From a virus (Duplodnaviria; Caudoviricetes), in the IMG/VR virus record IMGVR_UViG_3300030110_001912, positions 1 through 59,530 of that record: 59,530 nucleotides of DNA. The stretch is one strand, 5' to 3'. Below are positions 23,636 through 25,676 of the stretch, piece after piece. A model generated the notes under the pieces. That model worked only from the letters and a program-made list of their open reading frames with translations. It was not told the origin of the DNA and ran no database searches. Both the position numbers and the translations under genes were made by a program. Positions within the stretch are counted from its first letter, which is position 1. Each line of letters opens with the position of its first letter.

Positions 23636-24877
23636 GTGTTAAATTACTTATCAATATGTAGCGGAATAGAATCATGTAGTGTTGCATGGGATCCACTGGG
23701 TTGGAAACCTTTGGGTTTTTCTGAGATTGAAGAGTTCCGTTCTGCTGTGTTACAATATCATTATCCAGAGGTAAAAAATTATGGCGACTTCACGAAAATC
23801 ACAAAAGAAACAATCGGAACAAGACCAGATGTCCTTGTGGGGGGAACCCCTTGTGCAACCTTTAGCATCGCTGGACTTAGAAAAGGGTTTGAAGAAGATA
23901 GAGGAAACCTCGCACTTGAGTTTATTAGGCTTATTGATAGAGTTAGACCCACATGGATCATCTGGGAGAATGTGCCCGGCATCTTGTCATCAAACGAAGG
24001 AAAAGATCTTGGAACCTTTCTCGGAGCATTGGCAGAACTCAGGTATGGGTTCGCCTATAGGGTTCTTGACACTCAATATGTCAGAACAAGTCGCTTTCCA
24101 AGAGCCCTCCCACAAAGAAGAAGGCGTATCTTCGTTGTCGGACATATTAGAGACTGGAGATGTCCAGCAAAGGTATTATTTGACCAAGAACCAATGCAAG
24201 AAAATCCTTATCCGAGCAGAACAAAGAGACAAAGAGTTGCCAAAGAATTTACAAATCGCATTAGAAGAAGAGGTGACTACGTAGAGGATGATGTATCATC
24301 GACTATCTGTGCTAGAGATTATAAGTCTGCTACTGATTTAGTTGTTGAACAAGATACCTATACAAGAGTAAGTAATTTTGTTGAGGATGGATATAAGGAG
24401 GATGATAAAGCTTCTACATTATTAGCTAGAGATTATAAAGATATTACTGACTTAGTGGTAGTTAGAGATAATCATACTAAAAGTAATGGTAAACCTTGGA
24501 GTGAAGAAGATGTATCCTTTACATTGACTGCTGGAGATATACCAGCTGTTACTGTATTAGAAACCTCGACTCCAGATAAAACTGCTAGAGTATATAAAGA
24601 TGAGGTGTCCCCAACTTTGACTGCTATGACTGGTGGTAATAGACAACCAATAGTTTTTGGTAATCGAGTGAAGAAAATTAGAAGATTGACTCCTATTGAA
24701 TGTGAAAGGTTACAAGGTTTTCCAGATAATTATACACAAGTGCCCTATCGAGGTAAGCCAAAAGAAGAAGCTCCAGTGTCAAGAAGATATGAAGCTTGTG
24801 GCAGAGCTATGTCTATCAATGTTATGGAATGGTTAGGAACTAGAATACAAAAGGTACATGAAAATGAAAATAAATAA
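23636..24877 (+). CDS. C5-cytosine DNA methyltransferase-family enzyme, candidate carboxymethyltransferase
   Basis: Motifs I (SICSG), IV (GTPC..FS.AG), VI (ENV), VIII (QRRRR), IX (RRLTP.ECERLQGFPD), X variant GRAM. Confidence 0.92.
   Translation: MLNYLSICSGIESCSVAWDPLGWKPLGFSEIEEFRSAVLQYHYPEVKNYGDFTKITKETIGTRPDVLVGGTPCATFSIAGLRKGFEEDRGNLALEFIRLIDRVRPTWIIWENVPGILSSNEGKDLGTFLGALAELRYGFAYRVLDTQYVRTSRFPRALPQRRRRIFVVGHIRDWRCPAKVLFDQEPMQENPYPSRTKRQRVAKEFTNRIRRRGDYVEDDVSSTICARDYKSATDLVVEQDTYTRVSNFVEDGYKEDDKASTLLARDYKDITDLVVVRDNHTKSNGKPWSEEDVSFTLTAGDIPAVTVLETSTPDKTARVYKDEVSPTLTAMTGGNRQPIVFGNRVKKIRRLTPIECERLQGFPDNYTQVPYRGKPKEEAPVSRRYEACGRAMSINVMEWLGTRIQKVHENENK
23781..24284 (+). CDS. Out-of-frame nested gene, putative MTase accessory (beta-type) subunit
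   Basis: 167 codons open in +1 frame; GAGGT RBS 8 nt upstream; SSLSDILE..RYYLT..C..IL.RA..R.KELP motif. Confidence 0.7.
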   Translation: MATSRKSQKKQSEQDQMSLWGEPLVQPLASLDLEKGLKKIEETSHLSLLGLLIELDPHGSSGRMCPASCHQTKEKILEPFSEHWQNSGMGSPIGFLTLNMSEQVAFQEPSHKEEGVSSLSDILETGDVQQRYYLTKNQCKKILIRAEQRDKELPKNLQIALEEEVTT

Positions 24878-25676
24878 AATATTAGAAAACGAAATACAAA
24901 AAGTATCCAAAGATAATTCAGTAGCGGTATTATTATCTGGGGGTGTAGACAGTCTAAGTATAGCTTTTGCTTTACATAATTTAGGAAAGCAAATAAACGC
25001 ATATAGTTTTAAATTAGATAATTGTAAAAATTACGATAGTGATAAAGCAGAAGAAGTTTGTGACATTTTTAATTGGAATTATAAATGTAAAGTTGTGCCG
25101 ACAGACAATATTCATAAAGACTTTTTTACTTTAGCTAAAGATTATGATTGTAAGAAAAAAACACATTTTACTTGTGTATATCCATTTATGTATTTGTATC
25201 CAGAAATTTATGAACAAGAAGTTTTTAGTGGATGGGGAGCTGATGGTTACTATGGTATTTCTAAAAAAGCTATATTAAACTTTAAATATCCAAAATCTAA
25301 ATTTGATGAGTTTAGAGATAATTATTTTTTACCTAAAAATAGTGCTGGTTATTTATGGCATAAAAAAGTATCTAATAAACATAACAAAAAATTTTATGCA
25401 CCTTACTTAACAGATGCAGTAAAAAAGTTTTTTTATGATAAAGATTGGGATGAACTTAATAAACCTTTTCAAAAACATCATGTAGTAAATAGTTATAAAG
25501 AATTTACAAAGTTTAAGTTTAAAAAACATTTAAACTTACAAATAGGATCTGGTATAAATAATTTATTTGAAACTTTGTTAAACAATGGTGATATAAATAT
25601 AAACTTTAAATACAAATCTGTAAGTGGTTTTTGCCAATACTGGGGTAATAAAGAGATACATAATGGGAATATTTGA
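24858..25676 (+). CDS. Asparagine-synthetase-like ATP pyrophosphatase/amide ligase (no glutaminase domain)
   Basis: LLSGGVDS PP-loop; FSGWGADGYYG resembles AsnB SGEGADE.FG; overlaps the MTase stop. Confidence 0.82.
   Translation: MKMKINKILENEIQKVSKDNSVAVLLSGGVDSLSIAFALHNLGKQINAYSFKLDNCKNYDSDKAEEVCDIFNWNYKCKVVPTDNIHKDFFTLAKDYDCKKKTHFTCVYPFMYLYPEIYEQEVFSGWGADGYYGISKKAILNFKYPKSKFDEFRDNYFLPKNSAGYLWHKKVSNKHNKKFYAPYLTDAVKKFFYDKDWDELNKPFQKHHVVNSYKEFTKFKFKKHLNLQIGSGINNLFETLLNNGDININFKYKSVSGFCQYWGNKEIHNGNI

Follow-up and report, generated by a model that had tools for sequence, protein, structure and literature searches.

A predicted CmoX/CmoY-type cytosine hypermodification gene pair in a complete phage genome and the possible sources of its carboxy-S-adenosylmethionine

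What does a phage cytosine C5-methyltransferase do to DNA when the asparagine of its motif X is an arginine, and when its gene overlaps, by 20 nucleotides, a gene for an asparagine synthetase-like ligase? The question is raised by the viral record IMGVR_UViG_3300030110_001912 (Duplodnaviria; Caudoviricetes), a complete genome of 59,530 bp (CheckV completeness estimate 100%) that was analysed over its whole length and is called the window here. Both open reading frames (ORFs) sit inside the replication module. Sequence comparisons point to a DNA hypermodification module of the CmoX/CmoY type, a reading that is given a probability of about 85%. The methyltransferase (MTase)-fold enzyme would use carboxy-S-adenosylmethionine (Cx-SAM) in place of S-adenosylmethionine (SAM), and the ligase would act on the modified base.

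A system of this kind was published in December 2025. Yang et al. (Nat Commun 2025; PMC12783734) describe CmoA, CmoX and CmoY in Synechococcus phage S-B43, where CmoA is a Cx-SAM synthase, CmoX is a C5-MTase homologue that makes 5-carboxymethylcytosine (5cxmC), and SpCmoY is an asparagine synthetase homologue that ligates glycine to 5cxmC in DNA in an ATP-dependent reaction. [quoted passage not shown] The same paper states that the engineered enzyme M.MpeI N374K makes 5cxmC from Cx-SAM. The initial annotation of the gene pair had started from the premise that a basic residue at the motif X Asn opens the way to Cx-SAM, and had noted that natural phage enzymes of this sort were on record; both points are borne out by PMC12783734, so the pair is a new example and not a new kind of system. 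In a search of the full-text literature for natural cytosine carboxymethylation, this was the only paper found; the other matches dealt with engineered enzymes or used the terms in an unrelated sense.

Is the first gene that of a C5-MTase, and is the arginine where it should be? The 413-residue ORF, which starts with GTG, matches PF00145 (DNA_methylase) over the whole length of the profile (E 1.8e-49, profile positions 2-324 of 324) and also TIGR00675 (dcm) of NCBIfam. Motif I reads SICSGIES, motif IV reads GGTPCATFS and carries the catalytic Cys73, ENV occupies residues 111-113, and the further motifs QRRRRIF and RRLTPIECERLQGFPDNY are present. The Asn-to-Arg replacement proposed initially, in an enzyme otherwise equipped with all catalytic motifs, thus stands. 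The residue concerned, Arg390, lies at the position of the SAM-proximal Asn: a phmmer alignment to M.HhaI sets query G389-R390-A391 over HhaI G303-N304-S305, and a MAFFT alignment sets Arg390 over Arg350 of SpCmoX, whose numbering was checked against the 8YF3 sequence.

Arg390 is no sequencing accident: of the 120 top-ranking database homologues listed for the window MTase, 115 have Arg in motif X, four have Asn, and one is truncated. Invariant in the MTase clade are Cys73, E111-N112-V113 and the motif VIII arginines R162 and R164. A second substitution is found in motif IV, whose usual 'PCQ' has become 'PCA'. Ala follows the catalytic Cys in 119 of 121 rows (the 120 listed homologues and the query), and both rows with Gln have Asn in motif X; the change from Gln to Ala in motif IV thus appears to travel with Arg in motif X. 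Two Asn-type homologues, P0100 and P0116, combine PCA with G-N in motif X and may be intermediates or reversions.

Does the arginine go together with Cx-SAM? Gene context was surveyed in 50 related viral loci. In 45 of them the MTase gene is immediately followed, usually with an overlap, by a stand-alone SpCmoA homologue; three of the five loci without CmoA (L005, L006 and L009) end at or just past the MTase gene, and only L004 and L051 continue downstream. Motif X has Arg in all 42 MTase ORFs of these loci in which it can be read, the remaining ORFs being truncated or having an unknown residue at the position. The best-matching PHROG family for the clade CmoA homologues (112-130 bits, three scanned) is phrog_4752, which is also the best for the biochemically validated SpCmoA (239 bits). 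A second sample was drawn with an Asn-type homologue as its seed; here CmoA adjoins the MTase gene in four of four Arg-type loci and in none of three Asn-type viral loci; one further locus was cut at a contig end. Neither CmoA nor CmoY was adjacent in any of 80 bacterial relatives by profile scan, and motif X of these relatives reads Asn in 54 and Arg in none, with 26 unread by the search pattern. Since CmoA adjoins Arg-type but not non-Arg loci, the answer, to judge by gene context, is yes: the Arg-type MTase lineage would use Cx-SAM. The writing of 5cxmC, as put forward in the initial annotation, gains support from homology and from this link. The Arg-type clade is abundant in ocean viromes, almost always with its own CmoA.

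Could the gene nevertheless encode an ordinary SAM-dependent 5-methylcytosine MTase with an odd motif X, next to a ligase that acts on a substrate other than DNA? The protein does have the fold and every catalytic motif of a C5-MTase, it is by inference that another cofactor is assigned, and the genome is without a stand-alone cmoA. Such an enzyme would, however, be hard to reconcile with the presence of CmoA beside the Arg-type relatives in both samples and its absence beside the others, with the rejection of SAM by the Arg-bearing wild-type SpCmoX, or with a neighbouring gene that overlaps the MTase gene and encodes a close homologue of a ligase for 5cxmC in DNA. It is considered very improbable.

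A module of the CmoX/CmoY type calls for a ligase of the right family. The ligase ORF matches PF00733 (Asn_synthase; E 1.7e-9) in the PP-loop part alone, residues 15-135, and phrog_26038 (E 3.3e-27). With 272 residues and the SGGVDS motif almost at its start, it leaves no N-terminal room for a glutaminase domain, and no GATase family appears among its Pfam and NCBIfam profile matches; the initial description of an overlapping AsnB-like ATP pyrophosphatase that lacks the glutaminase part is therefore accurate. BLASTP aligns the ligase with SpCmoY at 50% identity (124/246 residues, E 5e-86), and in an alignment of 10 CmoY sequences, of which it is one, it keeps all 33 invariant columns. It is encoded beside a CmoX-type gene, as is SpCmoY, and it falls within the threshold of the SpCmoY network cluster, about 30% identity and 1e-56 according to the Fig. 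8 legend of PMC12783734. The association of an Arg motif X with AsnB-like neighbours, also raised initially, recurs in relatives: in 13 of the 50 related loci the MTase gene is immediately preceded by CmoY, and in two of the four Arg-type loci of the second sample CmoY adjoins it.

Which amine would be coupled? The initial suggestion of an amine other than ammonia fits well with the homology to a glycine ligase, and glycine is the best guess on that ground. The substrate joined to 5cxmC might instead be a simple amine or an amino acid other than glycine, which would give a different amide adduct. The identity of the window ligase to SpCmoY is about the same as that to CmoYs within its clade (49-52%), which suggests that it forms a branch of its own and leaves room for another substrate; its match to the glycine ligase is, on the other hand, far tighter than the cluster threshold, and a different amine is thought unlikely.

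The predicted pathway can be put together as follows. Cys73 of the CmoX-type enzyme would attack C6 of the target cytosine, and Arg390 would hold the carboxylate of the carboxymethyl group during its transfer from Cx-SAM to C5, with 5cxmC as the product. The ligase would then adenylate the carboxylate of 5cxmC with ATP and couple the amine; with glycine, most likely the natural choice, the final base would be 5-glycylcarboxymethylcytosine.

The second step may not be a fixed part of the locus. In the closest relatives, L004 (11106-11735) and L051 (172-801), an ORF of 209 amino acids occupies the CmoY position with the same start junction, and in G001, the complete genome behind these loci, the gene that follows CmoX is this 209-residue ORF and not CmoY. 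It putatively encodes a ThyX-like thymidylate synthase, an assignment read directly from the sequence and not from a family search. Because this ORF replaces CmoY at the same junction in G001 and L051, the ligase gene seems to behave as a swappable cassette at the MTase junction. A close relative with the 209-residue ORF would be expected to stop at 5cxmC.

Where would the Cx-SAM come from? Whole-genome searches with TIGR00740 and phrog_4752 pointed to one place only, about 14 kb from the gene pair: the C-terminal part of a very large ORF, here called the fused domain (Table 1). Its best NCBIfam match is TIGR00740, the CmoA family (31.3 bits, E 1.5e-7, positions 19-237 of 239), with the next family about five orders of magnitude weaker at E 0.03. 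It matches phrog_4752 with 63.5-65.5 bits; membership of this family is not proof of CmoA, because phrog_4752 is not CmoA-specific at loose thresholds and at E <= 1 finds a match in all 14 control genomes. Identity to SpCmoA is 24% over the full length. A sequence search of the PDB gave no match at E <= 1, so that profile and fold searches alone link the domain to CmoA.

The AlphaFold2 model of the fused domain (predicted local distance difference test score 82.3, predicted template modelling score 0.80) has a CmoA-like fold that includes the helical lid. In a fold search its top five PDB matches are CmoA/YecO structures (E 3.7e-11 to 2.2e-10). Close behind come the C-methyltransferases CysG/BelI, with E about 6e-10 and a higher template modelling score (TM-score), and for this reason the modelled fold alone does not single out CmoA. 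What of the residues that hold the cofactor? The Cx-SAM contacts of CmoA, including the Arg199 salt bridge to the carboxylate, are described by Byrne et al. 2013 (PMC3663124). They were mapped with an offset of 14 between the 4GEK chain and native numbering, verified at Tyr39, Asp62, Gly64, Ser66, Ala70, Asn132, Phe137 and Glu164. The fused domain keeps the equivalents of Asp62, Gly64, Asp89, Phe137 and Glu164, and has Phe for Tyr39. The position aligned with Arg199 is Ala in the fused domain and Glu in SpCmoA; as SpCmoA is active, this position is not diagnostic by alignment. Domains of the fused type are numerous, with 529 representative clusters at E <= 0.001, and most of the best 150 matches are proteins of 1000-5600 amino acids.

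Several observations weigh against the proposed module or against its supply from within the phage. The window MTase is just 25% identical to SpCmoX, and its motif IV reads GTPC where that of SpCmoX reads SPPC, the motif by which Yang et al. defined their candidates. Among its 56 PDB sequence matches at E <= 0.001, 8YF3, although in the searched set, is absent, the M.HhaI match scoring 81 bits; use of Cx-SAM in the window lineage would therefore hang on one residue together with gene context, and the chemistry of the pair as a whole we infer from homology and gene context. No stand-alone cmoA was found in the complete genome by the TIGR00740 and phrog_4752 searches. The score of the fused domain is far below the curated TIGR00740 cut-off of 193.3, and the domain has Glu where a conserved Lys-Arg pair, shared by E. 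coli CmoA, SpCmoA and at least 90% of stand-alone phage CmoAs, has Arg. Among 26 viral contigs of at least 25 kb, picked by length from 80 fused-domain loci, none has a PF00145 C5-MTase, and this holds for the five with a completeness of 90% or more. In Maribacter phage Panino the domain belongs to an 1829-residue protein, and the phage has neither a C5-MTase nor a CmoY.

How serious are these objections? The SPPC motif is the authors' filter and not a mechanistic requirement. The window enzyme and its clade read GTPC, and the GTPCA clade probably falls outside the published SPPC-defined CmoX set if the filter is applied literally. SpCmoX best matches HaeIII (80 bits), and the window MTase is 39-54% identical to Asn-type viral relatives. 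Each Arg-type enzyme is thus nearer to Asn-type MTases than to the other Arg-type enzyme, which suggests, from similarity and not from a rooted tree, that the Arg-type motif X arose independently in the SpCmoX and window lineages. Ordinary C5-methyltransferases seem to have given rise to Arg-type cytosine carboxymethyltransferases on at least two occasions.

The contigs without a C5-MTase, together with Panino, rule out the fused domain as a general dedicated cofactor supplier for CmoX. Supply in the window's own lineage is possible. The Cx-SAM would come either from the domain of the 1500-residue protein or from the CmoA of the host. The host is given slightly less than an even chance, and most of the remainder goes to the fused domain. 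With a host supply the module would work as described, and the fused domain would be unrelated to it, methylating some other substrate, for example. E. coli's own CmoA sufficed for SpCmoX to modify plasmid DNA (PMC12783734), and the survey in the same paper lists 5,615 candidate CmoX proteins (SPPC motif and Arg350) with 4,257 CmoAs on their contigs and 2,251 ligases, so that some candidates must be without CmoA on the contig. The frequency of the fused-type domain in giant proteins, its occurrence where there is no C5-MTase and its loss of the Arg of the Lys-Arg pair also agree with a host supply. The distribution of the domain among relatives speaks for the phage instead. The closest relative, G001, is the complete genome behind the CmoA-less loci L004 and L051; its CmoX is 86% and its polymerase 96% identical to those of the window, and like the window it combines the lack of a stand-alone CmoA with the presence of the fused domain (93% identity). 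The fused domain is missing from three complete genomes that have a stand-alone CmoA. The large protein has a homologue in G007 (51% identity over residues 1-1123), but this genome possesses neither the CmoA-like domain nor a C5-MTase.

A more specific proposal, judged somewhat unlikely as it stands, is that the phage has dispensed with a stand-alone CmoA, and that the domain in the large, probably DNA-delivered protein converts host SAM to Cx-SAM. If so, from injection onwards Cx-SAM would be supplied for DNA carboxymethylation and host SAM would be depleted. The related domains of giant proteins, which number in the hundreds, would by extension constitute a widespread SAM-converting counter-defence module of phages and plasmids. 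One suggestion for the role of fused-type domains in general is that they convert or deplete SAM.

Table 1. Positions of the gene pair, its key motifs and associated features in the window
Feature	Position	Strand	Basis or remark
Multidomain ORF of 1500 amino acids with the CmoA-like domain at its C-terminus	5430-9932	+	Beside an ejection-protein-like gene
Divergent CmoA-like (fused) domain, candidate Cx-SAM source	8979-9692	+	TIGR00740, phrog_4752, identity to SpCmoA, fold
ORF of 65 amino acids	23438-23635	+	Directly 5' of the MTase gene; position kept in relatives
Candidate CmoX-type DNA cytosine C5-carboxymethyltransferase, 413 amino acids	23636-24877	+	PF00145, HhaI and SpCmoX alignments, clade link to CmoA
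Motif IV, G70-T71-P72-C73-A74	23843-23857	+	Catalytic Cys73; Ala replaces the usual Gln of 'PCQ'
Arg390 codon, AGA	24803-24805	+	Position of HhaI Asn304 and SpCmoX Arg350
Predicted CmoY-type ATP-dependent amide ligase, 272 amino acids	24858-25676	+	PF00733, SpCmoY homology, phrog_26038
PP-loop SGGVDS, ligase residues 27-32	24936-24953	+	ATP pyrophosphatase signature; identical in SpCmoY (BLASTP)

The MTase gene and its surroundings have other features of note. The variable region of the enzyme (about 24290-24460, residues about 220-275) contains a tandem repeat of an 'ARDYK...TDLVV' module, which is a 38-residue insertion relative to L004, and homologues of 494-544 amino acids are longer in the same region; the repeat may represent variation of the target-recognition domain. 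Inside the gene, in another reading frame, 167 codons are open (23781-24284). The frame is open in L004 too, and it could stay open just through conservation of the MTase gene. The 65-residue ORF that precedes the MTase gene recurs at the same position in L004 (87% identity by tblastn) and in L005-L008 (52%). Pfam and PHROG searches gave no match for it, and it may encode a small regulator.

Elsewhere in the genome, the ORF at 36-1142 matches phrog_4287, 'DNA ejection protein'. A 322-residue ORF on the minus strand (14035-15003) matches phrog_7245, 'anti-restriction protein', with E 4.3e-73. It likely represents a further counter-restriction function beyond DNA modification, so that the phage would have a second probable function of this type. 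A 2-oxoglutarate (2OG)-Fe(II) oxygenase gene (20830-21441; PF13759, phrog_81) is found upstream of the polymerase gene, with no evidence that ties the oxygenase to the modification module. No tRNA genes were found in the window. As to the host, a single-sequence scan of bacterial genomes gave no relative, and a literature search on cmoA together with SAR11 found nothing useful. The nearest relative of the DNA polymerase gene is that of Pelagibacter phage HTVC023P, at 67% nucleotide identity.

What does the gene pair add? It places the predicted pathway in a marine phage of about 59 kb whose polymerase is most like that of HTVC023P, and in an MTase lineage only distantly related to the sole characterized enzyme. 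Since the clade is abundant in viromes and nearly always has CmoA, the modification may be common in marine phage DNA. This would have a bearing on restriction evasion, on virome sequencing and base-calling, and on efforts to find DNA-labelling enzymes that have different sequence specificities. Three things go beyond the published work: a second, apparently independent Arg-type lineage, the occurrence in an HTVC023P-related phage, and a fused CmoA-like domain in a genome without a stand-alone CmoA.

How, then, does the locus compare with known systems? The giant protein resembles the polyvalent proteins of Iyer et al. 2017 (PMC5512222) as a very large multidomain protein beside ejection-type genes and in the recurrence of its CmoA-like domain within proteins of 1000-5600 amino acids; a term search of that paper gave no mention of CmoA, cmo5U or 'carboxy'. 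The fused domain has the same best NCBIfam family, PHROG and top fold matches as CmoA (E. coli 4GEK/4IWN and SpCmoA), but it is located within a giant protein and is not stand-alone. The engineered enzyme M.MpeI N374K also has a basic residue in place of the motif X Asn, whereas the window enzyme has a natural Arg and not an engineered Lys, is phage-encoded and is coupled to a ligase. Dcm N436K, named in the initial annotation, is reportedly a similar engineered case. The closest functional counterpart of the window enzyme would be SpCmoX, with which it shares the C5-MTase fold, the catalytic Cys of motif IV, Arg at the HhaI Asn304 position, a small residue for the Gln of 'PCQ' (Ser in SpCmoX, Ala in the window enzyme), and a place in a phage genome beside a CmoY-type ligase. 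Motif I is different (CSGIES in the window, AGGGGS in SpCmoX), as is the variable, target-recognition region, so that the GC specificity of SpCmoX is not transferable to the window enzyme as its presumed DNA target sequence. The ligase is alike to SpCmoY in length (272 and 271 residues), in the PP-loop, in having no glutaminase domain and in adjoining CmoX. It is the gene order that varies: X-Y in the window, A-Y-X in S-B43 and Y-X-A in most relatives of the clade.

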